15,876 bases of DNA. Origin: Caldisericota bacterium (GTDB lineage: Bacteria; Caldisericota; Caldisericia; JAAYUI01). Below the pieces are notes generated by a model. That model worked only from the letters and a program-made list of their open reading frames with translations, had not been told where the DNA came from and made no database searches. Where the stretch lies: the NCBI GenBank assembly GCA_029548865.1, contig JAKPMO010000017.1:1-15876 (forward strand), read 5' to 3'. This document shows positions 1 through 15,876 of this stretch, piece by piece. Within the stretch, counting starts at the first letter, position 1, and each line of letters begins with the position of its first letter. A program made the position numbers and the translations under genes.

Positions 1-2493
1 GGTGGTGGTGTCTTCACCCACCTTGAGCACCTTCTTTGCCCTCTGGCCTGTTGCATAGTATGTGAACTCTATAGTGTCACCGTTTGGCTTTGTTACCTTT
101 GTCACCTGACCTTCATCGTTGTAGGTGAGGTATGTCCAACCGGGGGTCAAAAGTGGGGCGGAGGGGGTATCGGGGTTGTAACTGCTATTACCATAACCAA
201 GGGAAGGGGTGGTGTCGTTGTATCTGGAGTTGATGAGGACCATTGGGGAGTGGGGGAGAGTCTTATCTTGCGCAAAATAGACCTGGTGAGGCCCAAAGCT
301 CGTCATCCTTCCTGCCTTGTCGTACACGTAATCGATTGTGTCGGTTCCGTTGTTGCTCTGGGTGAGTTGGTCAGAGGCATTGTAGGTATAGGAAGTTGTG
401 ACCAACCCAACGGTTTTTGAGGAGCAGTTGTATGCGTCATCATAGACCAGCGAGGTCGTGACAGAACCATCAACAACCTGGGTAACTTGCCCCATCGCAT
501 CGTATGTGTATGAGTGCGTTCCATCTGCATCCTGCATCTGGGTGCGCTGTCCGATATCATCAAATGTGTAGGTCCAGTCGTACTTGTTTGTTGTACCATA
601 GTCAACAGAAACCGCCGAGGCCTTGTAAAGATCATTGAGTGTGTAGTCATAGACTACATCTTGCAAGCCTGGAACAGTTTTCTTTGTGAGCCTGCCCGAG
701 GCATTGTACTGATATGCCACCGAGCTGAGCAGCTCTGGCGGTTTGAAACCAGTCAATCTCCTGTTTGTATAGCTGTAAGTGTAGTTTCCCCTGGGATTGG
801 TTTTTGAGGTCAGGAGAGCACCACTGCCCCTTGTATAGTCAACCTGCCAGTTGTATGGCGAGACATATCTTGTCAGTTCACCACTGGCCGCATAGGTGAA
901 TGAATGCGTGCCAAGCGGCTCCGTGATCGAGGTAATATCGCCAGTCAATTGGCTAAATGCATAGGTTATGGTCGAGGAGTCAGAATGCGTGACACCTGAC
1001 ATGCGCTTTAGCAGGTCATAGGTGAACTGCATCTCCTGGTTCTCGCCATTTTTAAATGATGTTTTGAGGCCATCGTTCGTGAACTCGGAGACCTCTGGTT
1101 CCTGGACTCCTGGCCAGTAAACGTTTGTTGGCCTTTGCCAATCGTCGTATGTGTATGTCGTTTCATGGTTTTTCGGATCAGTTTTCTTTATGAGGTTGCC
1201 ATCCTGGTAGGTATAAGACCAGATTTTTCCTTTTGCATCAGTTACAGATGATATTCTGCCCGCGTCATCATAGGTGTAGCTGGCGGTATTCCCTAAGTCA
1301 TTTTCGACTTCCGAGATGCCGCAGGGATTGTATGTTAGATTTGTCTGGGCACCGTTGGGCGCCTCAATCTTGGTCATCCTTCCAGCATTGTCGTATGCGT
1401 AATTGGTTGTCTTTCCCATCTCATCGGAGGTTGATGCGACCAGATTAGTCAGATTCTTGTAAGTGCGGTCCTGGTGGTTGCCATTAGGGTCAGTCAACCT
1501 TGTTGGGCGCCCCCAGTCATCATAGGTGGCCGTCAAATAGTATCCGTCTTCCCAAGAGACCTTGTTTATTCTGCCATTGTCAGTGTACTCAAGAGTAATC
1601 AGGTGCCCATCCGGTGGTACATACCTGTTTATCCTGCCGTTCTGGTCCTTGAGCCACTCTTCGGTGCGGTTTCCTGGATGAATAATCTTTTTTACGGTCG
1701 AATCATCATTGTAGTAAATGTTGGTTTCTTTGCCTTGAGGGTCGGTGACTTTCTTCAGTAGACCAGTTTCGCTCAAATACTCATAGCTTGAAGTCTGGCT
1801 ATCTTTGGTGATCGATGACACTCTCCCTTTTGTATCATAATTGAAGCTGGACGTAACAGTGTGGTTTGTTGGACCTTCAACAATCTGTGAAATCTGGCCT
1901 TTCGTATTGTATGAAAATTCAGCAGGGTAATTGCCGGTGACTTTTGACAATCTGTCCTTCTGGTCATAAATGAAATTGTAGCTCTCTCCCGTTGGATAAT
2001 TGATTCCCAATGGTTTACCATCATCGGTCCAAGTCATTGTGGTTTCAATTGTTCCACTACCGCAAGAGCTCGATTTCAGCTTTATTGGCTGGTTTGAAGC
2101 GTCATACTCAATCTCTCTTGTTTCACCCGTTGGATGATTGACCCTTCTTGGCAATCCATTGTCATAATATTCGTAGGTGGTTTCAGAACCATTCCCATTT
2201 TTAGATTTCATCATGTTTCCACATTGATCAGTATACTCGTATGTAGTCTCCGGTCTTTGCTTGTTTAATGGAGCATCATACTGGACTTTTGCAACCTGAC
2301 CCGTGTGTGATGGAGATCCTTCAACCTCATAGTCATACGTATATGTTGTACCCTGAAATTCACATCCTTTTATGATGCTCTTGAGATCACCATAATCGTT
2401 GTATGTGTAGGTCCAAAGTTTTACCAAATCACATGTAGGATTGGTTGGATAATCGCACCAGACCACCTCCTCAAGCGGATCCCCCTTTATATC
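1..2493 (-). CDS. Rhs/YD-repeat protein, C-terminal-side segment (partial; open frame runs off the left edge; apparent frameshifted continuation of 2471..4567)
   Basis: Manual translation: no stop from 2493 (just after an in-frame TAG at 2496-2494) down to base 1, 831 codons. It is missing from the ORF track because it has no stop in the window. Many YD repeats: TYTYNDYGDL, TTYEYYDNGLP, FIYDQKDRL, ATYDDWGRPTRLTDPNGN, YAYDNAGRMTKI, YTYDDAGRISSVTDAKG, YTYDAMGQVT, YVYDKAGRMT, YYATGQRAKK. Confidence 0.9.
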
Positions 2494-4567
2494 CTATGCC
2501 CAATACATTGTCCTCAGTCGTTTTTGTTGTGTATTGATCATAAAAATAATGGCAATCTTGTGAATGGTGAATTTGCCAGTGCCATCTTTGCACCGATTCC
2601 TCCTGGTTGTTCGGTATGTGGTGGTCTGTGAACTCTACCTTTCCCGGTTCCCCTTGTTTATATTGGATATTCAAACCTTTTGGCTTCATCTCTCCAAGCT
2701 GAGTGTATTCAATGTTTTCATAAACATAAACGCCATTTAATTTTATGTTTTTCAGATAAGTGAGCCCACTCGGATAGGTTCCATACTCAAATTCGCAATC
2801 AGTCGGGTCTGTCGTATTATCTCTCACTTTTACCAATCTGGTTGTCCCAGGGAGATAGAAAAATTCAAGATTCCTGCTCGAATAATCGTTTCTTACATTG
2901 GTCAAAAGACCCTCTGGAGAGTAATAAAGATAGAAATATCTTCCCTGGCAATCTAGGTACTTCACTGGCAGATAGTTACCATTGGGCATTAATTTGAATT
3001 CAATCTTTGTACCATCCTTATGGTGTAATCTTATCCATGGGTTATTCTCCTCATCAAAGAATTCTTCAGCCATGAGGTGAGATTTTTCCGCTTTCCATGA
3101 TCTGGGGGTTGTGCCCTGACTGGCAAGCCTTGTGAGCGTGCCAGTTGATCCACGCAATATAAGATAATCCTCACACCATGGGGTCAATTTCACCTGGTAA
3201 TTGTGTACCCATCCCCATCCAATACCTGTGTCGATATAGGATTGTGAATTATACGTAATCGAGAAATTCATCGACAAAGCAGACGACCCTTTGACCGGCA
3301 GCGAGAATGGACTGAAATCAGTAATAAAATTCAGGTTGGCAGTATTCAGAAGATGGTTCCCATCATTTAGCTCTTCATAAAATGTTTGGTGTTCTTTGCC
3401 GATATCATTTCCAAGGCAATCCCCATTCCAGTTTGCCTGTATATAGCTGCCGAGTGTATCATCCGGTTCATAATAGACATAGTTGACCGCCATAACTGGC
3501 AAAGGTTGGTTTACAATACAAAGTGTGGATGCAATATCTTGTTGCTTGAAACCAAGCCCAATGTTTGTTGAAGTGCCGCTGGCTTCTCTGACAGCGGCTG
3601 TTATATCAACAATCCCGCACCTTGATGGGCACTGGAAAGTATCTATCAGATCTCCCTGGGGCTGGTTTTCCCAGTTTATGTCTTGCCCATTCCAGTTTGT
3701 GCCAATATTTAATATCCCAACATTTGTGCTAACACATGAATTGATAATATTGGAAAAATCAAGAGTGGCCTCTGTTATGTAAACATTTTGCAAATTGCCA
3801 AACTCATAGTTTATGTATGTGTTGGAAACAATACTCTGCGGTGGTTCCTGGACGATGTAATTTGTCACATCAAATCTTGAATTTGGAAGGACGTACTTTG
3901 TAACTTGACCATTGTCATTCACAAGTGATGCAAAATCTACTACTGATGGAATACTTGCCCCAACTGGACTTGTGGTCATTGACTTCATGGGGTCTATGGT
4001 TAAGGTATATATTTTTCCAAATTCATTTTTGGCTGGTCCTGGTTTGATGATGGCTTCTCTTCCTGAAGCGTTAGTAATACTGACTATAATGCCAGCGTTT
4101 TTGTTTTGTTCGGTTTCTCTTGCTGCTTTGGAGAGATCAACGCTCCCGGCTGGCTGGAAATACTTTTCATAAGTGATCGAGTCATCACAGAAATTTGTAA
4201 TATCACCAATTTGACATGTCCCAACTCTCACAAAAATATTGTCATCATCTGAAAATTTGACTTTCGATGGTCCCTTGTATCTAGGGCTGAGAAGTTTTAC
4301 TTGTTGGCCAGCACCTATCTTGAAACCATTATCATCAATCTTTTCCCAGCCAGAATTCTTGTCTGGCACATAGAATGTGCTAGATGCCAAAACACCGCTA
4401 TTTATTGATGAAAGATTGTAAATACTCTGGCTCAATGTCGATGGAGGTACTGCATGAGCTGTTTGTGATTGTGTTTTTGAATCATCGCCGTTGTCTTTGC
4501 TCACCACAAAACTAACCTGTGAAAACATCAGAATGATCGCCATCGCCGGAACAACAAATTTGCGCAT
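2471..4567 (-). CDS. Secreted Rhs-family protein, N-terminal segment (signal peptide, DNRLRE-like region, DUF6531-like domain, first YD repeats)
   Basis: 698 aa ORF. The start MRKFVVPAMAIILMFSQVSFVVS looks like a Sec signal peptide, with an SD-like GGGGGTG just upstream. ITEATLDF...WNGQDINWENQP resembles DNRLRE-type modules. FSITYNSQSYIDTGIGWGWVHNY matches the DUF6531-type RxYNS...GxGW pattern of Rhs proteins. YD-like motifs follow (YLYYSPEGLLTNV, IEYTQLGEM). Confidence 0.8.
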   Translation of the reverse strand: MRKFVVPAMAIILMFSQVSFVVSKDNGDDSKTQSQTAHAVPPSTLSQSIYNLSSINSGVLASSTFYVPDKNSGWEKIDDNGFKIGAGQQVKLLSPRYKGPSKVKFSDDDNIFVRVGTCQIGDITNFCDDSITYEKYFQPAGSVDLSKAARETEQNKNAGIIVSITNASGREAIIKPGPAKNEFGKIYTLTIDPMKSMTTSPVGASIPSVVDFASLVNDNGQVTKYVLPNSRFDVTNYIVQEPPQSIVSNTYINYEFGNLQNVYITEATLDFSNIINSCVSTNVGILNIGTNWNGQDINWENQPQGDLIDTFQCPSRCGIVDITAAVREASGTSTNIGLGFKQQDIASTLCIVNQPLPVMAVNYVYYEPDDTLGSYIQANWNGDCLGNDIGKEHQTFYEELNDGNHLLNTANLNFITDFSPFSLPVKGSSALSMNFSITYNSQSYIDTGIGWGWVHNYQVKLTPWCEDYLILRGSTGTLTRLASQGTTPRSWKAEKSHLMAEEFFDEENNPWIRLHHKDGTKIEFKLMPNGNYLPVKYLDCQGRYFYLYYSPEGLLTNVRNDYSSRNLEFFYLPGTTRLVKVRDNTTDPTDCEFEYGTYPSGLTYLKNIKLNGVYVYENIEYTQLGEMKPKGLNIQYKQGEPGKVEFTDHHIPNNQEESVQRWHWQIHHSQDCHYFYDQYTTKTTEDNVLGIGYKGGSA

Positions 4568-4848
4568 ATCCCACCCCCAATGTTATTTTTATGAATAAAC
4601 ATAAATCTGTTTCCCAGTAGCATCAATTATCCTGGATTAATCAATAATGAACCAAATATCAATTCGATGTCTGGATTTTGTTAATTATATTTTCGTAAAA
4701 AAGATGGTCGAAAAAATGTATGATGGATTTTGAAATATTGCACAATCAAATGCTATCCAACGCTATTTTTTGGAGGACATCATTTTTTGTGTTTATGGTT
4801 TCGATCCTTTTGCCTGTTTTGATATTTTCGAAAACCTAAGTGAAGGGT

Positions 4849-4868
4849 TGTGACAAAATGCTGTCACA
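4849..4868. promoter_or_regulatory. Perfect inverted repeat TGTGACA-AAATGC-TGTCACA, putative operator of a dimeric transcription factor
   Basis: 7-6-7 palindrome read directly in the AT-rich intergenic region, ~60 bp upstream of the predicted cas promoter. The operator role is inferred. Confidence 0.55.
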
Positions 4869-4928
4869 GGTCATGTGTATAAATGGGAAGGCTATCTTGA
4901 ATAATGGTTTAATGTCTTGTTGATTATA

Positions 4929-4958
4929 TGGACATGTTGATGAAAAAGGTGCTATAAT
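4929..4958 (+). promoter_or_regulatory. Putative sigma70-type promoter of the cas operon
   Basis: TGGACA (4929-4934, 5/6 match to TTGACA), an 18-nt spacer, then TATAAT (4953-4958) preceded by an extended -10 TG at 4950-4951. A second TATAAT is at 4966-4971. GGAG SD at 4995-4998 lies 7 nt before the cas3 GTG. Confidence 0.55.
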
Positions 4959-5005: not shown

Positions 5006-7870
5006 GTGAAAAAATCATTGCTTTTTTGGGGAAAAACTCTTCAGGAAAAAGATACAACAAATAGTGGTGTTGTAATAGCAAAAAGTCACCCATTGCTCTT
5101 CCATATGGTTGATGTCGCCAGTGTTACAGAAAAGATATTTGAAAGGGCGATCAGTGATCACATAAAAAAGAATTTGAAAACACTATACCAAAATGAGGAC
5201 GATTCTTCTCTATCCTCAAAGATTGCCTTCCTTGCAGGGTTGCATGATTTGGGAAAAGCTACCCCGCCATTTCAGGGTCTTTGGCGTGAAGGAGCAAAAG
5301 AACTTTCAGCCGAGGGCTTGAAGTTCCCTCCTGTAAATGACAAGACAAAAAATCACGGATTGATGACTTCCTCATTGATTTTTGCAGAATTTGAGTCCAC
5401 AAAAGACAAGGACAAACTAACAAATCAAATTGGGAGGAAGATAGCCATATCTCTTGGCGGTCATCACGGACTGATGAGTGATTGCTACGTCTGGAAAGAT
5501 TTCGCAAGTCACAAGTTTTTCTCCGGATCCGCATCATGGCTGGAGGCACGCAAAGAACTGCTGTCCGATTACTACAAATGCATCTATGAGATGGACATGG
5601 GTGAAAAAACACTCAAGGAAGCGATACTGGAAGCCCTCCCAAAAGATGAATCATTGAAAATCCTTCAGTCAAATGATTCATTTTTTGCATTTCTCTCCGG
5701 CCTTGTTTCTGTTGCCGACTGGGTTGGTTCATCAACCGATTGGTTTGAATTTCATGAGCCTGATGACTCCACAAGCGCAATTGATGATTATCTAAGTCAC
5801 TCCAGAGAGTCGGCTGCAAGGGCCGTTGACAACGTGTGGCCTGAAGAAACCGGCGAACAAAAGATGTTTGCGAATGGCGAAGAGCTATTTTCATACATAT
5901 TCCCAGAGATTAGACAGGGTCCAAGGCCACTTCAGAGAAAGTGCATTGATATTGCCCCCACCTCTAGTGATGGGAAAATGGATTCAAATCAGATAGTAAT
6001 AATTGAAGCACCAACTGGTGAAGGGAAAACTGAGGCAGCATTCTACCTCTTTGATTCCTGGCAGAGACAAAATGTTGCTCATGGTGCCTATATTGCTTTG
6101 CCGACCATGGCAACATCAAACCAGATGTTTTCGCGTTTCAAAAATTTCCTCTCGAGGGGTCATGGAGAAAAGATTACCTTAAATCTTTTGCACTCAATGA
6201 AATTCTTTAATGATGATTTCAGGGAGCTAAAGATAGTTGGTGCAAACGACCAGGGCTACTCTGATACAATCGTTGCCAATTCATGGTTTCAAAAATCCAA
6301 GAGGGGGCTCATAACACCTTATGCCGTAGGGACAATCGACCAGTCCCTAATGGGTGCACTTCAAGTGAAGCATATGTTTGTGAGGCTTTTTGGGCTGGCC
6401 GGGAAAACCGTAATCTTTGATGAAGTCCACGCCTATGATACATATATGAGCAATTTACTTGACATGCTCATAAGCTGGCTTTCAGAGCTGGGTTCGTCAG
6501 TGATAATTCTTTCAGCAACCCTTCCAGAAAAAAGAAAGAGGGAGCTATTAAAAGCTTTTTGTAGAGATAGTGTAAAGGGAGAGGCCAAAAATACTTATCC
6601 TGCAATAACTTATACCAGCAAAAACAAGAAAATTGAGTCTGCCACATTCCAGTCAAACAAGGAAGTAAGGCCGGTTGTGACACTCAAGAAAGCTGGATCC
6701 AGCATCCAGGAGACTGCCGACACAATCATGGATCTAATCGATCAAGGTGGTTGTGCGGCCTGGATATGCAACACTGTAAACCAGTCTCAGGAAGCTTTTC
6801 ACTACTTAAAAGAGAAAGCTCCTGCCGATGTGGAACTTGTTCTCTTCCATGCAAGATTTACTGCCTCAGACAGACTTGGCATTGAAGATCGCGTCCTTTC
6901 AATGATGGGCAAGGGGCAACAGGCAAAGAGGCCCAAAAAAGCAATTGTTGTTGCAACCCAGGTCATCGAGCAGAGCCTTGACCTTGATTTCGATGTTATG
7001 GTAAGCGAATTTGCTCCAATCGACCTCCTTGTTCAAAGGGTTGGGAGGCTCCACAGACACAAAAGGGAACAAAGACCTCCTAAGGTTTCTGAGCCTGCGA
7101 TGTTTGTCCAGTTTCCAGAAAAGAAAGATGGCATCCCCGATTTCGGCCCCAGCAAATACATTTATGAAGAGTATGTTCTGGCAAAAACATTGCTCACCCT
7201 TGAGAACAGACTGAAAGAGGATTCTTATACTTTCTCTGACAGAGATGACACTGTAAAAAAACTGATCGAAGAGGTTTATGGAGATTCAGGGTCAGATGCC
7301 ATGGAGCTTGAAGGACACCTCAAAAAACTCAAAAAGAAATTTGATGAGAAAAATCAGGAAATAGAGTCAAATGCTAGAAAGATAATTATTGACTACCCGG
7401 TACAAATTCCAGCCGGGAAAAAACAAGCTGATGATTTCAGGTTCGCATTCATAAATTATTACAGGGATTGCAAGGCTCCGGACGATGATGATCCAGGCAA
7501 CCCAACAAAATTTGCCCCATTAACCAGGCTTTCCGATGGTCCATCTTTTAAAGCGGTTTGTCTTTTTGAGGATGGAGGAAAAACATACCTGGATCTTGAA
7601 ACAAAACAGCCTGTTGATATTTCAAAATCTCCGAAGAACATTCACGAAACAAATAGTCTAATTCAAAACTCTTTAACAATTTCAGGCTGGAAGAATTTCA
7701 ATATCTTGAAATCTCTTGCTAAACCTGAATCTTGGGCCAATTCGCCTTCCCTAAAAGGGATGCCAGTAATAATTTTCAAGAAAACCGATGGAGTATGGGT
7801 TTCTGTTGTGGATACAAAATTCCGGTATTCCAGAGAATTCGGGCTTGAGATTGCAAAGGAGGGTGATTGA
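5006..7870 (+). CDS. cas3: CRISPR-associated HD nuclease/SF2 helicase Cas3 (type I-E)
   Basis: 954 aa. HD-domain motifs HMVDVA, LHDLGKATPPFQ, GGHHG and SVADWVGS. Walker A APTGEGKT, DEVH, SAT, VATQVIEQSLDLDFD and QRVGRLHRH. GTG start with a GGAG SD. Confidence 0.97.
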   Translation: MKKSLLFWGKTLQEKDTTNSGVVIAKSHPLLFHMVDVASVTEKIFERAISDHIKKNLKTLYQNEDDSSLSSKIAFLAGLHDLGKATPPFQGLWREGAKELSAEGLKFPPVNDKTKNHGLMTSSLIFAEFESTKDKDKLTNQIGRKIAISLGGHHGLMSDCYVWKDFASHKFFSGSASWLEARKELLSDYYKCIYEMDMGEKTLKEAILEALPKDESLKILQSNDSFFAFLSGLVSVADWVGSSTDWFEFHEPDDSTSAIDDYLSHSRESAARAVDNVWPEETGEQKMFANGEELFSYIFPEIRQGPRPLQRKCIDIAPTSSDGKMDSNQIVIIEAPTGEGKTEAAFYLFDSWQRQNVAHGAYIALPTMATSNQMFSRFKNFLSRGHGEKITLNLLHSMKFFNDDFRELKIVGANDQGYSDTIVANSWFQKSKRGLITPYAVGTIDQSLMGALQVKHMFVRLFGLAGKTVIFDEVHAYDTYMSNLLDMLISWLSELGSSVIILSATLPEKRKRELLKAFCRDSVKGEAKNTYPAITYTSKNKKIESATFQSNKEVRPVVTLKKAGSSIQETADTIMDLIDQGGCAAWICNTVNQSQEAFHYLKEKAPADVELVLFHARFTASDRLGIEDRVLSMMGKGQQAKRPKKAIVVATQVIEQSLDLDFDVMVSEFAPIDLLVQRVGRLHRHKREQRPPKVSEPAMFVQFPEKKDGIPDFGPSKYIYEEYVLAKTLLTLENRLKEDSYTFSDRDDTVKKLIEEVYGDSGSDAMELEGHLKKLKKKFDEKNQEIESNARKIIIDYPVQIPAGKKQADDFRFAFINYYRDCKAPDDDDPGNPTKFAPLTRLSDGPSFKAVCLFEDGGKTYLDLETKQPVDISKSPKNIHETNSLIQNSLTISGWKNFNILKSLAKPESWANSPSLKGMPVIIFKKTDGVWVSVVDTKFRYSREFGLEIAKEGD

Positions 7871-9573
7871 TGGAGACAAAAGAATTCAACCTCCAAGATG
7901 AACCCTGGATCTGGTGCACTCTGAATGGAAAGTCCAAGGAGCTGAGTTCGAAAGATGTATTTAAAATGAGCCAGAACATTGGAGAAATCACAGATATCTC
8001 TCCAATGGTTACAATCAGCATCTACAGATTTCTTCTGGCCATTATGTACTCAGCATTCAGAGGGGAGAGGCGTTGGCCTGGAAAGCATGAAATCTGGTCG
8101 ATTGATGACTGGAAAAACATTCATGCCGATCCTGATGGCGCAATTGAGCAAATACTTGCCTACCTTGAAACTGTCCATGAAAGGATGTGGCTTTTCCACC
8201 CAGAATATCCATTCTATCAAAAACCTGACCTGAAACTAAAGGAATCAAAGGACCCGGAAGATGGCAAGATGCCAATCGGAAAAATGAGGATGTATGCCGC
8301 AAACAGCAGTCAGGGCACACTTTTTGACCACACTGTCGAATCGGACTTGTTTTCCACAAAATCTGTTTATCCTGATGAAGCGGCAAGACTATTGCTTGCA
8401 TTCCAGAATTTTGACATAGGCACGGCAGGTACTGCAGAGTATCATGATGATGGCCAAGAAACAAAATATCTGAAAGATTCATTGCTGAGAGGGGAGGCAG
8501 TAAACTTTTGGCAAGGAAAATCTCTTTTTCAAACACTCTTGCTGAACATGATTCCAGTGCATGAACTAGATGCCCTGTCAAAGCTTGGATACCCTGCAGG
8601 GGATTCATCCGATCGGCCCAGTTTTGAGGTTGATCCTGGCCATTTCTGGAAAGAACCGGGTTGTAGACAAAAAACTGAAAAAGGTGATTTTGTATATATA
8701 AAAAAAGTTGAAGGGATAATCGACTATCTGACTTGGCAAAGCAGAAAAACCAAGCTTTTCAGAAATGAGCAAAGCATGACAGTTTCATTTGCAAGAACAA
8801 AGGGGCTGGTTTTTCCCGGAAATGAAAATATGCTTGATCCATTTGTAATTTACAATTACAGGGAAGGGAAAAAACCTAGCGAAAGTGGCTGGAAAAGCAA
8901 AATACGATTGGATCCTGAAAAACAGGTTTGGAGAAGTCTGGACGTTCTTCTTGCCCGAACAATACCATCAAAACATGATTTTCTGCCGGCCCTCACAACA
9001 AAGTTTCTCTCAGAGACTTATTCAAAAGAAATATCAAATGGGGATATAAAACTCTCCCTGTTTTGTCATTACCAGGAAGCCAACCAGAGAATAAAAGACT
9101 GGTCACAACAAACCTTTCCCATACCAGCCACCTACATGAAAAACGAGAGCTTTGTAGATGGCATCGAAATTGTTTTAAATATTGGCAAAGAAATTAGTTG
9201 GGGCTTAAAAAAATCATCACAAACAATCATAGAAGAGCTCCTCGCTGGAAAAGAAAAATCAGTTCAAATTGATCTTGAATCCGATTTCTGGCCACTGCTG
9301 CAAATACCTTTTGCAAGGTTTGTAAATGATCTTGGCCAATATGATGAAGATGCCTTCTGGGATGATGCCTCCCAGCTAAAAATCAGGGAGATCTTTAGCA
9401 ACTGGCAAAATACGGTCATAGCACTGGCAAAGGACGTTTTTAACAGGGCCACAACAAAAATAAGATTTAACGCAAATGGCATAAATGCAATCATAAAAGG
9501 CCAGCAAGTGCTTGAGAGGTCAATAGATAAACTGAAAAGTAAGTATGAGATTGACAACGGAGGCGAGCAATGA
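7870..9573 (+). CDS. cas8e: Type I-E Cascade large subunit Cas8e (Cse1/CasA)
   Basis: FNLQDEPWI N-terminus, LFHPEYPFYQ, GTLFDH, EAARLLLAFQNF, SLFQTLLLN, DYLTWQSR, DPF, WRSL. Position after cas3. ATG at 7870 overlaps the cas3 TGA and is 7 nt after AAGGAGG (7856-7862), so it is preferred over TTG 7867. Confidence 0.92.
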   Translation: METKEFNLQDEPWIWCTLNGKSKELSSKDVFKMSQNIGEITDISPMVTISIYRFLLAIMYSAFRGERRWPGKHEIWSIDDWKNIHADPDGAIEQILAYLETVHERMWLFHPEYPFYQKPDLKLKESKDPEDGKMPIGKMRMYAANSSQGTLFDHTVESDLFSTKSVYPDEAARLLLAFQNFDIGTAGTAEYHDDGQETKYLKDSLLRGEAVNFWQGKSLFQTLLLNMIPVHELDALSKLGYPAGDSSDRPSFEVDPGHFWKEPGCRQKTEKGDFVYIKKVEGIIDYLTWQSRKTKLFRNEQSMTVSFARTKGLVFPGNENMLDPFVIYNYREGKKPSESGWKSKIRLDPEKQVWRSLDVLLARTIPSKHDFLPALTTKFLSETYSKEISNGDIKLSLFCHYQEANQRIKDWSQQTFPIPATYMKNESFVDGIEIVLNIGKEISWGLKKSSQTIIEELLAGKEKSVQIDLESDFWPLLQIPFARFVNDLGQYDEDAFWDDASQLKIREIFSNWQNTVIALAKDVFNRATTKIRFNANGINAIIKGQQVLERSIDKLKSKYEIDNGGEQ

Positions 9574-10145
9574 CAGAGGTAAACAAAAAGATCCATGAGA
9601 AACCTGCTTTTGTGGAATCGCTGGAAGACCTTGTGAAAAAAGGCGACAGGGCAGGGCTTGCTACATTAAGAAAAGGCCTTGGAAAAGAGCCAGGTACAGT
9701 CACAGAAATGTACAAATATGTTTATTCCAGAATACCAGGGCAGACAAACCTTTTTAATGAGAAGATTTATTTTTTGACGGCTTCCCTGTTTGCTCTCTGG
9801 CATCAGGGTAAACAGAAACTGGAAAAAGATTTTGAAGGGGATTTTGGGAAAACTTTTAGGCAAATAAGCAAAAACTCTGAATCTGAATCAATAAAAGAAC
9901 GTTTTACTGCAATCATCAATTCACATTTTGACGATTTGCCAAATCACTTGCGGCACGCTGTGTCATTGGCAAAATCAAAAGATGTTCCAATTAATTGGAG
10001 TTTTCTTCTCGAAGACCTGAAATGGTGGAACAACGATGACAAGCGTGTTCAAAGGAAATGGATGAAATCTTTCTTGCAGGAAGAAAAAAAGGAACTTCCA
10101 CAGGCAGAAGGAACACAGAAAGAGGAGGAACAAAATGAAGATTGA
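9570..10145 (+). CDS. cse2: Type I-E Cascade small subunit Cas11 (Cse2/CasB)
   Basis: 191 aa. DRAGLATLRKGLGKEPG, LTASLFALWH, HLRHAVSL, INWSFLLEDLKWW, VQRKWMKSF. ATGA overlap with the cas8e stop and a GGAGG SD. Confidence 0.93.
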   Translation: MTEVNKKIHEKPAFVESLEDLVKKGDRAGLATLRKGLGKEPGTVTEMYKYVYSRIPGQTNLFNEKIYFLTASLFALWHQGKQKLEKDFEGDFGKTFRQISKNSESESIKERFTAIINSHFDDLPNHLRHAVSLAKSKDVPINWSFLLEDLKWWNNDDKRVQRKWMKSFLQEEKKELPQAEGTQKEEEQNED

Positions 10146-11274
10146 GCTTCACATATTGCAGAATTTCGCGCCATCAAACCTGAACCGTGACGACACCAAT
10201 GCCCCAAAGGATTGCGAGTTTGGTGGAGTCAGGCGTGCAAGGATTTCCAGCCAGTGCCTTAAAAGGGCAATCAGGACAAATGAGATTTTTTCGAATACCC
10301 TGAAATCTAGTGATTCGGAACAGGATGTATCTGTTGGAAAGAGGACCCGCCTCCTGAAGGATCAGATCATTGCAATACTTGGCTTGCAGGAAAACCTAAA
10401 AGATGTCCAAAAAACCTCTGACAAAGAAAAAACGGCCAAAACCGAAAACTCAAAAAAACTTGATGATTTTATCAAGGCTGCAGTCAAAACAGCTATTGAT
10501 GACAGCGATGCGACAAAGATGCTTATTCACTATGATGATGCCGAAATAAAGATGCTTGCAAACCTCTTCTCAAAAGTTCTTTCCGGTGAAAAGAAACCGG
10601 AGGAAGCAGCAAAAGAGTTCAAACCCAAATCAAAGGCCTCCGATATAGCCCTCTTTGGCAGGATGGTTGCGGAAAATACAGATTTTAATGTTGATGCGGC
10701 CTGCCAGGTTGCCCATGCGATTTCCACCAACAAGGTCAGCATGGAGATGGACTATTTCACTGCCATCGATGATCTCAAGAAAGACTTTGCCTCTGAAGAT
10801 GCCGGTGCGGGCATGATAGGTACTGTTGAATTCAATTCAGCATGCTTTTACCGTTACTCAGTAATCGATACTAATCAGCTCAGGGCAAATCTTGACGGGG
10901 ACAACGAGCTTTCCAAAAAAACTGTCCGTGCATTCATTGAATCTTCAATTGCTGCAATCCCGACTGGCAAACAAAACAGCATGGCAGCACAAAATCCTCC
11001 CAGTTTTGTGATGGCCGTCGTGAAAGACTCCTGCGCTCCGTGGTCTCTTGCAAATGCGTTTGAAAAACCGGTTGGCCCCGGCCAGAATGGTCTTGTTGTT
11101 TCATCAATCGAACGCTTTGATGACTACTGGGGAAGGCTTGTGTCTGTCTACTCGGATGATGGTGTCAAAACAGCCGCCCTTTTCACAACTGAAAATGTTG
11201 ATCTCAAAAATCTTGTTTCCTCCAAGGTTTCGGGGAAAAAGGAATTGGTTGAAAAAATAATTGGAGCCATTTAG
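10135..11274 (+). CDS. cas7: Type I-E Cascade backbone Cas7 (Cse4/CasC)
   Basis: 379 aa. IELHILQNFAPSNLNRDDTNAPK, RARISSQCLKRAIR, DIALFGRM, AACQVAHAIST, DYFTAIDD, GAGMIGTVEFNSACFYRY, PTGKQNSMA. Confidence 0.97.
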   Translation: MKIELHILQNFAPSNLNRDDTNAPKDCEFGGVRRARISSQCLKRAIRTNEIFSNTLKSSDSEQDVSVGKRTRLLKDQIIAILGLQENLKDVQKTSDKEKTAKTENSKKLDDFIKAAVKTAIDDSDATKMLIHYDDAEIKMLANLFSKVLSGEKKPEEAAKEFKPKSKASDIALFGRMVAENTDFNVDAACQVAHAISTNKVSMEMDYFTAIDDLKKDFASEDAGAGMIGTVEFNSACFYRYSVIDTNQLRANLDGDNELSKKTVRAFIESSIAAIPTGKQNSMAAQNPPSFVMAVVKDSCAPWSLANAFEKPVGPGQNGLVVSSIERFDDYWGRLVSVYSDDGVKTAALFTTENVDLKNLVSSKVSGKKELVEKIIGAI

Positions 11275-11276
11275 TA

Positions 11277-12062
11277 ATGGATTCCTCAAACAAGTTCGCC
11301 CTGATTTTAAGGCTTGCTGGCCCAATGCAGGCCTGGGGCATACAAAGCCGGTTCGAATACAGGGACACCGGGGCCGAGCCTTCCAGATCGGGTGTAATAG
11401 GTCTGCTTGGCTGCTCTCTTGGAGTTGGCAGGGAGGACAAAGAGTTCCTTTCCAGATGCATGAGGCTGGAGATGGGTATACTTGTCCTCAAAGAAGGCGC
11501 TGTTTTGTGGGATTACCAGGTTTCTGGCGGTGGCAAATGGAAGGGCAGGGAATATGGTGTCGCTACTGCAAATGGGAAATCAACGACAGTTGTTTCAAAC
11601 CGGCATTACCTTTCAGATGCTGATTTCCTGGTTGGATTGATAGGAGAGCCAGGTTTTATCGAGGAATTGTCTGCCGGAGTCAAATCGCCTGTATGGCCAA
11701 TCTTTCTTGGAAGAAAGGCTTTTGTGCCGTCTCATCCAGTTTTTGTTGCCACCCTTCAGCTCCATGACATAAAAGAAGCTCTTGCAGAGGGCCTTTTAAG
11801 GTTGGCCACAAAAGAAGGCTGGCTGAAGGATAGCAACTCTGGAAACTCATCAAATCCTGTCCTTTCAAACCATCCTTGGCTTGCTGGTTCCAAACAAGAA
11901 CCTCCTCTTTTGAGAATGCAAATTGAATGCGATCAGGACGCTGGAACCGAAAAAAATGATGTCCCGCTGAGTTTCAGCAAGCTCGACAGAAAATATATGA
12001 AGCGTTATGTTTCCAACACATATATTGATCCAGCGGCCATTCTTGGCAAAGGAAAGGCATAA
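11277..12062 (+). CDS. cas5: Type I-E Cascade subunit Cas5 (CasD)
   Basis: 261 aa. LRLAGPMQAWG, RDT..PSRSGVIGLLGCSLG, RHYLSDADFLVGL, PVWPIFLGRKAFVPS, DVPLSF. Confidence 0.95.
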   Translation: MDSSNKFALILRLAGPMQAWGIQSRFEYRDTGAEPSRSGVIGLLGCSLGVGREDKEFLSRCMRLEMGILVLKEGAVLWDYQVSGGGKWKGREYGVATANGKSTTVVSNRHYLSDADFLVGLIGEPGFIEELSAGVKSPVWPIFLGRKAFVPSHPVFVATLQLHDIKEALAEGLLRLATKEGWLKDSNSGNSSNPVLSNHPWLAGSKQEPPLLRMQIECDQDAGTEKNDVPLSFSKLDRKYMKRYVSNTYIDPAAILGKGKA

Positions 12063-12067
12063 AAAAT

Positions 12068-12724
12068 ATGGACGAGATTTATTTCTCAAAAATCAGGCCG
12101 GATTTTCGCAATCACGATGCACGAAATGCAATGTCTGATACTGAAAAACTGCATAAATTGCTTATGTCCGCTTTCCCAGATTTTGGAGGGAACGGCAGGG
12201 AGAAAACAAACCTTCTTTTCCGGGTGGAAACAGACGGGTACATAATTGCTTCATCAACTGTAAAACCAGACTGGTCTTTTTTAGGTCCCGGATTTATGGT
12301 TGAGAGTACAAATGTGCTTGATCTTTCCACAACCCAATTTGCTGGTGCCGATTTTGCCTTTCGTCTTGTTGCGAATCCAACATACAAAAAATCTGGATCA
12401 AAAAATGTTGTCCCTCTTCGCGAGTATTACACGCAGAATTTTCTGGATAAGTACAAAATGGCAAAAAATCCGCCAACTGTCTTTGAATGGATGGAGCGAA
12501 AAGCAAATAATTCTGGTTTTCAAATCCGCCAGCTTTCTGCAGTTGGATTGAATTATCGTCCTGATGGTTCATCAAGACGTTCCATAAACTTCAAGATGTA
12601 CCTCTTTGAGGGGCAATTGCGGGTTGTTGATGTCCCCCTTTTTGCCCGAACCTTGAAAACTGGAATAGGCAGAGAAAAAGCTTTTGGTTGTGGCCTTCTT
12701 TCAATAGCGCCCATAAAAGGTTAG
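12068..12724 (+). CDS. cas6e: Type I-E crRNA-processing endoribonuclease Cas6e (Cse3/CasE)
   Basis: 218 aa. LHKLLMSAFPD, LLFRVE, FRLVANPT, FEGQLRV, and the C-terminal glycine-rich loop GIGREKAFGCGLLSIAP. Confidence 0.95.
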   Translation: MDEIYFSKIRPDFRNHDARNAMSDTEKLHKLLMSAFPDFGGNGREKTNLLFRVETDGYIIASSTVKPDWSFLGPGFMVESTNVLDLSTTQFAGADFAFRLVANPTYKKSGSKNVVPLREYYTQNFLDKYKMAKNPPTVFEWMERKANNSGFQIRQLSAVGLNYRPDGSSRRSINFKMYLFEGQLRVVDVPLFARTLKTGIGREKAFGCGLLSIAPIKG

Positions 12725-12728
12725 AAAA

Positions 12729-13658
12729 ATAAAAGATCTTCATGAGCTGAGCAGGTTTGAGGATTGCCTCGCACATGTCTATGTCGAGCACTGCGTTGTC
12801 GAGCAGGACGCAAAGTCGATTGCCATATTTGATTTGAATGGCAAAACGCCAATTCCTGTTGCCAACCTTTCTGTCCTCTTCCTTGGTCCGGGCACAAAGA
12901 TAAGTCATCAGGCCATAAAAAATCTGGCTGACTCAGGATGTATTGTTTTCTGGACTGGGGAAGAGGGCGTAAGGTTCTATGCTTGCGGTGTTGGCAAGGG
13001 CAGGTCTTCACGCAATCTCCTTCTTCAGGCGAAGCTTGTTTCAAATCCGGAAGCAAGACTCAAGGTTGTCCGAAAAATGTATGAAAAGCGTTTTGAAGAA
13101 CTGCTTGACCCTTCCCTGACGCTTCGGCAGATAAGGGGTAAAGAGGGTGCCAGAATGAGGGATACATACGCCATGCAAAGCGCTGCAACCGGTGTTCCCT
13201 GGTCTGGCCGGGAATATGACCCAAAAAAATTTGATTTTTCAAACCCGATCAATCGTGCCCTGACCTCAGCAAATGCGTGCCTTTATGGAATTTGCCATGC
13301 CGCAATCGTTTCTGCTGGTTACTCGCCTGGTCTTGGTTTCATCCACACCGGCCTCCAGCTGTCTTTTGTGTATGATGTGGCAGACTTATACAAAACTGAA
13401 ACGGCAATTCCCATTTCTTTCAAGGTTATCTCCGAGGGAGACTATGAGGTTGAGAGGCGTGTCAGGATTGCAATGCGCGATTCCTTCAAGGCGACAAAAC
13501 TGATGGGTCGCATTATTGCAGACATGAAAGAATGTCTTACTGTTCCGGATTACATTTCCGAAATACCTGAAACTTTTGATCTTGACCCCCAAAACTTTAT
13601 TTGGGACCCGGAAGAGGGTGTTCTTTCTGGTGGAATAAACTACAACTCGGACTTGTAA
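12729..13658 (+). CDS. cas1: Type I-E CRISPR integrase Cas1 (proposed non-canonical ATA start; ORF track starts it at TTG 12834)
   Basis: LFLGPGTKISHQA, RGKEGARMR, NRALTSANACLYG, GYSPGLGFIHTG, SFVYDVADLYK and WD...GGINY. The 35 in-frame codons upstream of 12834 read IKDLHELSRFEDCLAHVYVEHCVVEQDAKSIAIFD, resembling the usual I-E Cas1 N-terminus. An in-frame TAA at 12714-12716 bounds the frame. The gene identity is secure; the start position is less so. Confidence 0.93.
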   Translation: MKDLHELSRFEDCLAHVYVEHCVVEQDAKSIAIFDLNGKTPIPVANLSVLFLGPGTKISHQAIKNLADSGCIVFWTGEEGVRFYACGVGKGRSSRNLLLQAKLVSNPEARLKVVRKMYEKRFEELLDPSLTLRQIRGKEGARMRDTYAMQSAATGVPWSGREYDPKKFDFSNPINRALTSANACLYGICHAAIVSAGYSPGLGFIHTGLQLSFVYDVADLYKTETAIPISFKVISEGDYEVERRVRIAMRDSFKATKLMGRIIADMKECLTVPDYISEIPETFDLDPQNFIWDPEEGVLSGGINYNSDL

Positions 13659-13691
13659 ACCATCATTTTCCATTGTTCTAGGGAGGTTTTG

Positions 13692-14201
13692 ATGAAAAAA
13701 ATGACAACACTAATAATGCTGGTCTTGGTTATGGCCATGGTCGGTGCCGTTCAATTCCAGAGGGTCACAATGCGACCTCATGAAACAAAGTTTTGGTGCG
13801 ATGAGAATACAGTCATCAATATAAACTGGACTGTAGACGCACCATCGGATACTGTTGAGGAGGGCCTATTTCTGATTGTATATTCAGAAGATGAGGGCCT
13901 TCAATATGCAGATTACTTTGACCTGCTAGAAATGAGTGAGTTTGTTGATGATAAAGGTCAGGGTACATTCGCAGTTGGTGGTTTGCAGAAAGCTAGATAT
14001 ACAGTCATGATTATGGACTATATGTTGCCAGAACATCGCTTTAATGCTGATATTACTGTAGTCCCAGAAACAGGGGAAGAGGAAGGACACATTATAAAGC
14101 TTGATGAAATCAGACATGCTAGCCATCAGCAATACATTTTGAAGATGAAAACCATTTTAAAAACAGAAAAAACAGGAATGATTCCAAAGGCCAGTCGATA
14201 A
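13692..14201 (+). CDS. Hypothetical exported or membrane-anchored protein (~169 aa) between cas1 and cas2
   Basis: Strong SD GGGAGG (13681-13686) 5 nt before ATG 13692 (ORF track uses TTG 13689). The N-terminus MKKMTTLIMLVLVMAMVGA has a basic n-region and a hydrophobic h-region. The mature part is acidic with beta-strand-like segments. Its TAA is immediately followed by the cas2 ATG. Confidence 0.75.
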   Translation: MKKMTTLIMLVLVMAMVGAVQFQRVTMRPHETKFWCDENTVININWTVDAPSDTVEEGLFLIVYSEDEGLQYADYFDLLEMSEFVDDKGQGTFAVGGLQKARYTVMIMDYMLPEHRFNADITVVPETGEEEGHIIKLDEIRHASHQQYILKMKTILKTEKTGMIPKASR

Positions 14202-14555
14202 ATGGTTGTAATGGTCCTTGAAAAAGTCCCTGCATCGCTCAGGGGAGATTTGACCAGATGGCTGCTGGAACTCAAAACAGGGGTTTTTGTGGGCAATATA
14301 TCTGCTCTTGTCAGGGAAAAACTCTGGGAAAAAGCTTGTGGAGGCTGCAAGGGTGGAGCTGCAATGATGCTTTTTTCCGCATCCACCGAACAAGGTTTTG
14401 ATATCCGTTTTTGGGGAAAAACCAGCAGGCTGGTTCAGGATTTTGAAGGTGTAAAGCTCATCACGATACCAGAAAAAACACAAACAAAAAGCGCCATTTC
14501 TGAGGTGCCAGGTGATGAGCATAACACTGGTGAAGCTGACCTCGAAGAAATATAG
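14202..14555 (+). CDS. cas2: Type I-E Cas2
   Basis: 117 aa. MVVMVLEKVPASLRGDLTRWLLELKTGVFVGNISALVREKLW, EQGF and DFEGVKLI are hallmark I-E Cas2 motifs, followed by a 27-aa acidic tail. Confidence 0.96.
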   Translation: MVVMVLEKVPASLRGDLTRWLLELKTGVFVGNISALVREKLWEKACGGCKGGAAMMLFSASTEQGFDIRFWGKTSRLVQDFEGVKLITIPEKTQTKSAISEVPGDEHNTGEADLEEI

Positions 14556-14666
14556 GTTTTTCCAATTGTTTATTTGTTTATGAAACAAATATAGGCCAGG
14601 ACAGGTTTTATTACTTAAACAAGATTTTCTTTATTTCAGGGTAGGCTGCATATCATTTTCTTTAGT
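14556..14666 (+). promoter_or_regulatory. CRISPR leader
   Basis: AT-rich non-coding 111 bp between the cas2 stop and the first repeat, ending in TTTAGT. Confidence 0.8.
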
Positions 14667-15876
14667 CTCTTCCCCACACACGTGGGGGTGTCCCTATAAT
14701 GAATCCTTATTATGTTTGTTATATTTGCTCTTCCCCACACACGTGGGGGTGTCCCTGGTGTTGCAGGAGTATTAATAGAGTACGTTAACTCTTCCCCACA
14801 CACGTGGGGGTGTCCCTTAAATCCATTGACGGCCAGCCGGTCAAACTCACTCTTCCCCACACACGTGGGGGTGTCCCTAAAGGGTGTCCATGAAATAGGA
14901 AAGGAGCTAACTCTTCCCCACACACGTGGGGGTGTCCCTGGTGCGGTTGCCTATCTCTTTATAAATCTGATCTCTTCCCCACACACGTGGGGGTGTCCCT
15001 TTCAGCAGTGGAGGTGACAACGACGTGGGACTCTCTTCCCCACACACGTGGGGGTGTCCCCAAATCTTTACAAGTCAGTACGCAACAGGGTTTCTCTTCC
15101 CCACACACGTGGGGGTGTCCCTGAAAATAATTGAGATGGACATCATGAAGGTAACTCTTCCCCACACACGTGGGGGTGTCCCTGCAAAAAGCCAGTTTTG
15201 ATATGCTTTGTCTGGCTCTTCCCCACACACGTGGGGGTGTCCCCAAACCACGCTTGACAATTGAAATAACCGATAACTCTTCCCCACACACGTGGGGGTG
15301 TCCCTGTCAAAAATGCAATAAATAATACAGCCGAAACCTCTTCCCCACACACGTGGGGGTGTCCCTAAGGCCTGCGTCAGAGTCGGCTGGATGGGTATCT
15401 CTTCCCCACACACGTGGGGGTGTCCCTCATAAAATTGTAGGGATAAGTGAAAAGCATTACTCTTCCCCACACACGTGGGGGTGTCCCTAAAGCCAGGGCA
15501 TAAAAAAGGCCAGAAAGAGACTCTTCCCCACACACGTGGGGGTGTCCCCCTTTCCAGGCAAGCAAATTCTCCCTCTATCCTCTCTTCCCCACACACGTGG
15601 GGGTGTCCCTCCAGACGCAAGATTGGCGTGGAAATGCAAGAACTCTTCCCCACACACGTGGGGGTGTCCCTATCTTTTGTATCAGGGATTTTTGGTTCAG
15701 GCACTCTTCCCCACACACGTGGGGGTGTCCCTTTCCCTCTCTTTGTAGTGGCGTTGGTTTTGCGCTCTTCCCCACACACGTGGGGGTGTCCCTTTCTTAC
15801 TCTCTTTTACAAGAATTGCTAGATACTCTTCCCCACACACGTGGGGGTGTCCCTCGACACCACAGTACGCGTTAGA
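14667..15876 (+). CRISPR. Type I-E CRISPR array: 20 identical repeats CTCTTCCCCACACACGTGGGGGTGTCCC (28 nt), 19 complete 33-nt spacers plus one partial; truncated by the window edge
   Basis: Repeats start at 14667, 14728, 14789 ... 15826 with a strict 61-bp period; the last repeat ends at 15853. Hairpin CCCCAC-ACAC-GTGGGG is followed by GTGTCCC plus one base, giving the 8-nt 5' handle expected from Cas6e cleavage. This and the leader position support plus-strand transcription. Confidence 0.99.

Follow-up and report, generated by a model that had tools for sequence, protein, structure and literature searches.

The Cas1-Cas2 integrase is cytoplasmic, and few gene pairs in CRISPR loci are linked as tightly as cas1 and cas2. 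Genes outside the core cas set that are directed at the cell envelope have been described in such loci. As far as its available text goes, the work of Shmakov et al. (bioRxiv 10.1101/270033) reports CRISPR-linked CorA, membrane CARF proteins and small membrane proteins encoded beside STAND NTPases in minimal type I-E loci, and the accessible part of PMC10038342 reports that membrane proteins are linked genome-wide to the carriage of CRISPR. Neither "secreted" nor "signal peptide" appears in the main text of 10.1101/270033, and no precedent emerged from the accessible sections of PMC9453068 and PMC5216340. Likewise, our literature search, outside of which most subscription papers fell, found no report of an exported gene between cas1 and cas2 of type I-E. 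Here we describe a type I-E locus in which a gene encoding a probably exported protein occupies exactly this slot.

The DNA analyzed here, subsequently called the window, is a stretch of 15,876 nucleotides corresponding to contig C7 of genome G000. It carries a complete type I-E operon extending from cas3 (5006) to cas2 (14555) with the gene order cas3-cas8e-cas11-cas7-cas5-cas6-cas1-ORF-cas2, followed by an array of 20 repeats (Table 1). Matches to Pfam and NCBIfam models identified cas3, cas8e, cas11, cas7, cas5, cas6e, cas1e and cas2e, with PRK09694 remaining below cut-off for cas3 and cas3_core matching instead. Both genes flanking the inserted ORF encode full-length proteins, Cas1e and Cas2e. 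The gap between them measures 543 nt in the window and 545-548 nt in relatives, and adjacency of cas1 and cas2, which is usual though not defining for type I-E, is absent at this locus. No Rfam match was obtained within positions 12600-14700. Divergently from cas3, an RHS-type gene containing DNRLRE/CBM96 and DUF6531 domains occupies positions 1-4567 of the minus strand. In G000 this gene falls into two overlapping frames near 2471-2493, while in both G001 and G003 a single open frame runs up to the end of the contig.

Table 1. Coordinates of the features at the type I-E locus (window positions).
Feature	Position	Strand	Evidence or remark
Type I-E interference genes cas3, cas8e, cas11, cas7, cas5, cas6e	5006..12724	+	Pfam/NCBIfam matches over cut-off
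cas1e, likely non-canonical ATA start at 12729	12729..13658	+	TIGR03638 E 7e-104
Strong Shine-Dalgarno site of inserted gene	13680..13686	+	AGGGAGG; duplex -11.5 kcal/mol; GGGAGG kept in 4/4 species
Inserted orphan gene, 169 aa (161-164 aa in other alleles)	13692..14201	+	
Predicted Sec signal peptide, residues 1-19	13692..13748	+	hydropathy, charge, invariant V17-G18-A19
Predicted acidic seven-strand beta-sandwich, residues 21-128	13752..14075	+	AlphaFold2 pLDDT 83, pTM 0.76
Acidic linker and basic C-terminal helix (low-confidence model); recombined segment in G000	14076..14174	+	
A-run: six A in window, five in other species	14167..14172	+	extra A lengthens protein to cas2 start
7-codon mini-ORF; ATG overlaps TGA stop of short alleles, TAA abuts cas2 ATG	14178..14201	+	
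cas2e, weak SD	14202..14555	+	PF09707 E 4e-32; TIGR01873 E 1.5e-20
AT-rich CRISPR leader	14556..14666	+	position, cross-species conservation, polarity of new spacers
CRISPR array: 20 repeats, 61-nt period, 19 spacers of 33 nt; extends to contig end	14667..15853	+	

The first-pass annotation, which relied on the letters of the window, had proposed an intact ORF of ~169 aa with a strong Shine-Dalgarno (SD) site of its own between complete cas1 and cas2 genes. Indeed, the ORF at 13692-14201 (plus strand) comprises 169 aa when counted from its ATG and lies downstream of the cas1 stop (13658) and before the start of cas2. Scored as duplex with the anti-SD motif, its SD site is the strongest of the adaptation module, reaching -11.5 kcal/mol as compared to -3.4 kcal/mol for cas2; the AAGG of cas2 ends 11 nt before the ATG, and the annotation of this site as weak could also be confirmed. 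The frame is intact in three other species (genomes G001-G003). Ratios of dN/dS were 0.08-0.14 in 5/6 species pairs and 0.27 in the nearly identical pair G000-G001, values that fall inside the range of the cas genes. Moreover, codons 20-126 exhibited an excess of synonymous changes in 9/10 pairs (Fisher p 1e-5 to 3e-17), the tenth pair being nearly identical, and the codon comparison gave no sign of diversifying selection on the core. The ORF is a real gene under purifying selection. Its synonymous divergence amounts to 0.52-0.63 in 5/6 pairs versus 0.29-0.44 for cas1 and 0.07-0.21 for cas2. The GC content is 0.40 (genome: 0.45), and codon usage ranks at the 12th percentile of the genome, with cas6 ranking at the 6th.

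Database searches left the protein without a family. Pfam and NCBIfam provided none for the ORF, nor did Pfam for seven proteins of its family, and there was no match among the 5027 defence models of PADLOC. The best hit in PHROGs (E 0.024) was a baseplate/tail family, a sequence search of the PDB returned nothing under E 0.19, and a plasmid search yielded no match. There is no paralogue in the own genome, and no longer or fused form of the ORF was seen among 7994 candidates, which is weak evidence. When features of a protein language model were used, the top named cluster was DUF2141 (PF09912) with a score of 0.83 and 177/256 shared features, a value that below 0.9 counts as a lead only; whole-protein atlas features scored 0.76 at best. 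DUF2141 proteins are of similar size, but the ORF protein lacks a match to the profile: PF09912 matched in 0/11 genomes of the family, while the control matched in 3/14. Three candidate relatives were discarded, namely P0008 (E 5e-4), a repetitive protein with an hhalign probability of 2.9%, the viral locus L097, in which the signal peptide alone matched (33% over 40 residues), and a match in G082 (E 0.078) that contains an internal stop.

Next, we consider the distribution of the gene. It is present as single copy in the 4/4 genomes (species) of the genus and absent from the other 57 of the 61 relatives searched. A profile search in 93 genomes of the phylum returned four real matches, in the same genomes, and one rejected fragment. 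Among 1.84 billion protein representatives, relatives formed one true cluster and none were from outside the genus. The gene resides in the same slot of a syntenic operon in G001, G002 and G003, and the upstream RHS-type gene is shared in synteny by G001 and G003. In a metagenome scan with 57/64 parts covered, 5/5 full-length matches (loci) were likewise located between cas1 and cas2. Since L092 and L093 are almost identical to the window and the matches of L094 and L095 are fully so, the nine loci represent about six alleles. All nine loci with this cas1 lineage keep the ORF or a remnant, and no clean deletion was seen. The names or titles of the sources of homologues and loci refer to Caldisericales or Caldisericia, and the runs holding the ORF derive from sludge, biofilm and digesters.

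For comparison outside the genus we used the best 80 of at least 569 Cas1 loci in the genome collection (52/64 parts covered). Three of these (96-100% identity) carry the ORF and were left uncounted, as they are possibly the same DNA as G001-G003. None of the remaining 77 type I-E loci possesses a homologue of the ORF; 76 of them show cas2, and in 74 of these 76 the cas1-cas2 gap is 24 nt or less. The only other type I-E cas1 in the phylum sample, in G082, overlaps its own cas2 by 20 nt. Wider gaps of 417 nt and 110 nt were observed in the Pyrinomonadaceae type I-E loci L031 (5003-5419) and L017, respectively, and the 417-nt gap contains no homologue of the ORF. In a quick tree comprising 79/81 rows (two rows with internal stops were left out), the Cas1 proteins of the genus group as a single clade whose branch is long (length 1.32, support 100), and a single Cas1 cluster at 60-96% identity, P0029 (82%), was present among the 120 matches listed. 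Homologues located mainly inside cas loci are a trait of CRISPR accessory genes, and this trait is seen in 9/9 loci. The first-pass annotation had suggested examining whether homologues recur in cas operons: they occur solely in this cas slot, genus-wide, and thus not in unrelated contexts, the outcome that would have refuted the first-pass idea, but recurrence in independent lineages was not found with the queries used, which gave one genus, one Cas1 clade and 0/77 outside loci. One event explains all cases, because the neighbourhood is syntenic and the Cas1 proteins form a single long-branch clade. Since all carriers derive from one locus, conservation reflects this one event rather than repeated association. 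The association of the ORF with cas genes is therefore perfect, yet of single origin.

The 3' junction differs between alleles. In the window, the TAA stop of the ORF (14199-14201) abuts the ATG of cas2 (14202), as had been noted in the first-pass annotation. A run of six A at 14167-14172 is present in G000, L092-L095 and related proteins, while G001-G003 and L096 have five, and in the five-A alleles a TGA closes the frame 20 nt ahead of cas2. The TAA-ATG fusion is allele-specific and absent from 3/4 species. A mini-ORF starting with the ATG at 14178 is present in 9/9 loci and its stop adjoins the cas2 ATG. Its 24 nt show 0-2 differences, as compared to 0-6 in the 33-nt spacer between cas1 and the ORF. 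The mini-ORF could be a coupling element or an old tail of cas1. Re-initiation into cas2 is plausible for both allele forms, judging from these arrangements. At the 5' side of the module, the homologous start of cas1 is ATA in 9/9 loci of the genus, whereas 75/77 outside loci have a canonical start nearby. In-frame stops are found upstream in G000, G001, L092 and L093, and no ATG, GTG or TTG occurs until 12834, the position to which gene callers would cut cas1 back. The ATA start likely dampens translation of Cas1.

The protein has the anatomy of an exported one. Its N-terminus carries a charge of +2, followed by a hydrophobic stretch at residues 7-17 (mean hydropathy 3.27) and the motif V-G-A; V17-G18-A19 is invariant in 7/7 cluster representatives. 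A Sec/SPase I signal consists of a basic n-region, a hydrophobic h-region and a small-X-small site, with no further membrane helix in the protein, and charge and hydropathy revealed all of these features. A lipobox cysteine is missing. Cleavage is predicted after residue 19 (V-G-A), and the protein is likely Sec-exported. The core (residues 20-128) has a net charge of -13 and the tail (residues 146-169) of +5, in agreement with the Sec-like N-terminus, acidic core and basic tail recognized at first pass.

A model of the full-length protein reached a pLDDT of 67, with a helix at residues 145-160 and values <50 from residue 149 onwards. The core alone was modeled by AlphaFold2 as a seven-strand sandwich with pLDDT 83 and pTM 0.76, using a shallow alignment of five sequences. 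GOLD domains headed the lists of both Foldseek and VIA-align, and the next ranks were taken by protease C-terminal modules (PPC-type), then by collagen-binding modules and those binding carbohydrates (CBM); jelly-rolls of these types (5azx, 5azw, 1wmd, 3afg, 3jqw, 8zqf) are the best structural matches of the core. The best Z was 7.7 (rmsd 2.7, 85 residues aligned), a value that according to the tool may mean only a common arrangement and is tied with many other sandwiches, and 0/48,161 chains reached Z 8. Two GOLD domains gave Z 7.7 at rmsd 2.7-3.0 over 85-86 residues, with a Foldseek TM of about 0.5-0.58. Identity to the jelly-roll matches is 3-20%, with no Z of 8 or above and no HMM match, and the profiles of GOLD (PF01105) and PPC (PF04151) had no match at E <=10 in the own genome. 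The ORF protein is a stand-alone domain with a basic tail and no enzyme to which it would be appended. Viral structural matches show the same general kind of sandwich, and nuclease folds are absent among the structural matches of the core. An Ig/FnIII-like beta-sandwich had been raised as a possibility for the core at first pass. A beta-sandwich of seven strands is what the model predicts, and it is not clearly of the Ig/FnIII type: Ig or FnIII entries do not lead either fold list, and the matches that do, GOLD/PPC/CBM, are all weak. The model thus weakly suggests a core shaped like an extracellular binding module with a likeness to GOLD/PPC/CBM jelly-rolls.

To what extent the locus is expressed was addressed in RNA data. 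In four metatranscriptomes, contigs covered much of the region from cas3 to cas2 and none covered the upstream bin 4600-4936. One contig of an RNA library bridges cas1 and the ORF (13247-13765), while the ORF-cas2 junction was not bridged by at least 31 letters in RNA contigs and parts of the ORF were also left unbridged. DNA can occur in metatranscriptome libraries, and such contigs reveal neither strandedness nor whether one transcript is involved. As the depth of contigs is no measure for ranking genes, the lower depth over the ORF was disregarded. Promoter-like sites were as frequent as expected by chance (5 vs 2.9 +/- 1.6), and the same applied to terminator-like sites. At the level of DNA, contigs of two runs, which are possibly the source of this DNA itself, span both junctions of the ORF, the point on which its reality had been made to depend at first pass, and no joint skipping the ORF was detected in these two runs.

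Spacer acquisition appears to be active in presence of the ORF. The arrays of G000 and L092 have 17 spacers in common, arranged in the same order, and differ at their leader ends by two and four spacers. Of 74 distinct spacers, 71 start with T or C, a pattern as expected for ongoing PAM-guided uptake. No match of the spacers was obtained in 50,697 phage records, and no PAM or target was found. Broken alleles of the ORF occur as well. In L096 (1500-1989) two bases are missing at about window position 13977, which shortens the product to 116 aa, removes the two final strands of the predicted fold and makes the frame end about 160 nt before cas2; cas6, cas1, cas2 and the array are intact beside this frameshifted allele. 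The truncated protein recurs as P0023, on 4 contigs and from 5 sources, and a version with two additional changes is P0027. Because P0023 and P0027 repeat it, the truncation is not a one-off assembly error. The broken allele accounts for 1/9 loci and 2/25 listed cluster members.

The module also carries traces of exchange between species. Between G000 and G001 (contig C12), the region 12036-14579 is identical except for two sites and a block of differences at 14043-14167. Outside this region, the operon differs by ~10%. Judged by this pattern, the adaptation module (cas6 to cas2, ~2.5 kb) is a recent exchange between species, and the 3' part of the ORF is a recombined mosaic. Elsewhere in the operon, cas8e of G003 (L006:5096-6853) has 81% identity and is 18 residues longer in the alignment, its neighbours having at least 90%; it is possibly a swapped PAM-reading subunit.

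Which explanation accounts best for these observations? We slightly favor one old insertion inherited by descent, by which a Sec-exported envelope-binding protein rides in the cas transcript without a role in adaptation. A single insertion between cas1 and cas2 would have taken place in the ancestor of the locus. The exported domain would bind a glycan or a protein of the cell surface, the protein may be retained on the envelope by its basic tail, and it would be selected for a job outside the cell. Lacking a promoter of its own, the ORF would use the cas transcript. Ribosomes loaded at its strong SD could re-initiate at cas2, either directly in the long allele or via the mini-ORF in the short one, and the insert would be harmless to adaptation because cas2 is re-initiated at the end of the ORF. 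The export anatomy implies a location apart from Cas1-Cas2, a cytoplasmic integrase. The ligand-binding role is suggested weakly, by fold matches that are themselves weak, and among the tests run nothing shows a function in CRISPR or against phage. Arguing against a passenger, a true accessory gene would be expected to show the same picture, i.e. purifying selection and an occurrence restricted to a defence operon.

An unlikely alternative, though the main rival, is an accessory gene of defence: the protein would be co-expressed with the cas genes and exported to act at the cell surface as a shield or decoy. By binding to the receptor or the tail of a phage it would slow adsorption and thereby buy time for spacer uptake by Cas1-Cas2. 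The exclusive occurrence of the selected ORF inside this cas operon fits this idea, as do the strongest SD of the adaptation module and a fold class that includes glycan-binding modules and phage tail domains. Phage-facing genes often show high divergence and mosaic recombination, and the ORF combines synonymous divergence above that of cas1 and cas2 with a recombined 3' mosaic. These features fit, but none of them is specific. Moreover, linkage is not independent evidence when the gene has one origin, none of the 5027 defence models matched, the core lacks signs of diversifying selection, and a broken allele persists in nature. A precedent for the shielding mechanism is the Psh protein of Pseudomonas putida (bioRxiv 10.64898/2026.09.02.748959), which according to the available description is secreted, shields from phage and masks receptors. 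As described there, Psh is helix-rich and leaves the cell by a type I secretion system, unlike the ORF protein, and its description, which names no link to CRISPR, sets it apart.

A more elaborate version, which we likewise regard as doubtful, sees the locus as an undescribed type I-E variant in which the adaptation module brings along an exported shield against phage. Induction of the cas genes would secrete a glycan-binding jelly-roll that masks the receptor, while the strong SD and the mini-ORF feed Cas2 and the ATA start throttles Cas1, such that surface defence and memory are switched on together.

It is quite improbable that the position of the gene matters more than its protein, i.e. 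that the strong SD serves as a ribosome relay setting the Cas1:Cas2 ratio, which may also couple the amount of Cas2 made to the export of the ORF protein during its synthesis. This reading would make sense of the ATA start of cas1, kept throughout the genus and rare outside, of the weak SD of cas2 and of the conserved mini-ORF that joins the end of the ORF to the cas2 ATG in every locus. However, a relay would not need 126 selected codons, the 24 nt of the mini-ORF are also the initiation region of cas2, for which conservation is expected anyway, and cas2 is intact in L096 even though the frame ends far upstream of it.

That the protein acts as a Cas1-Cas2 cofactor comparable to Csn2 or Cas4, either in the cytoplasm or anchored in the membrane, is suggested by the position between cas1 and cas2 alone and appears very unlikely: the positive charge at the N-terminus and the signal anatomy would put the domain outside, no Cas family matched, the core is acidic and resembles no nuclease fold, and related type I-E loci do without such a gene. 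Although the ORF breaks a normally tight gene pair and has a GC content below that of the genome, a mobile-element remnant, a gene inserted by Cas1 or an assembly artefact is hardly credible and largely refuted, as four species possess the gene, both junctions are covered by DNA contigs with no skipping joint, no repeats among those listed flank the ORF, the TAAA common to both junctions reads TAAG in G002 and G003, codon usage is within the range of the genome, and neither a plasmid match nor a real viral match exists. In particular, there was no transposase, terminal inverted repeat, target duplication or empty site in close kin indicating an insertion sequence or mobile cassette, consistent with the first-pass annotation, which had seen neither transposase nor terminal inverted repeats nor an obvious target duplication, and a gene-sized insert written by Cas1 between repeats was rejected as no listed repeat flanks the ORF.

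Taken together, the data reveal a real and unusual variant of the type I-E locus and a new orphan protein family. They indicate that the cas1-cas2 pair of type I-E tolerates a stable, selected and predicted exported gene throughout a genus, with spacers apparently still being added. If the gene is a passenger, it is a curiosity of operon evolution together with a new orphan family; if it is a surface shield, a single transcript would couple defence at the level of the receptor with CRISPR adaptation. Because a frameshifted allele occurs naturally, the question of function is testable in metagenome time series. Compared to the known type I-E operon, the locus has all eight genes in the usual order, the 61-nt period of the array and addition of spacers at the leader end, and differs by the 543-nt insert with its own gene and by the likely ATA start of cas1. 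In comparison to the accessory genes in the accessible text of 10.1101/270033, the ORF is likewise a non-core, envelope-directed gene inside a cas locus. However, those genes encode integral membrane proteins, are found mostly in type III loci or in type I-E loci lacking cas1, cas2 and cas3, and recur across lineages, whereas the ORF encodes a predicted exported protein, belongs to a complete type I-E locus and has one origin.
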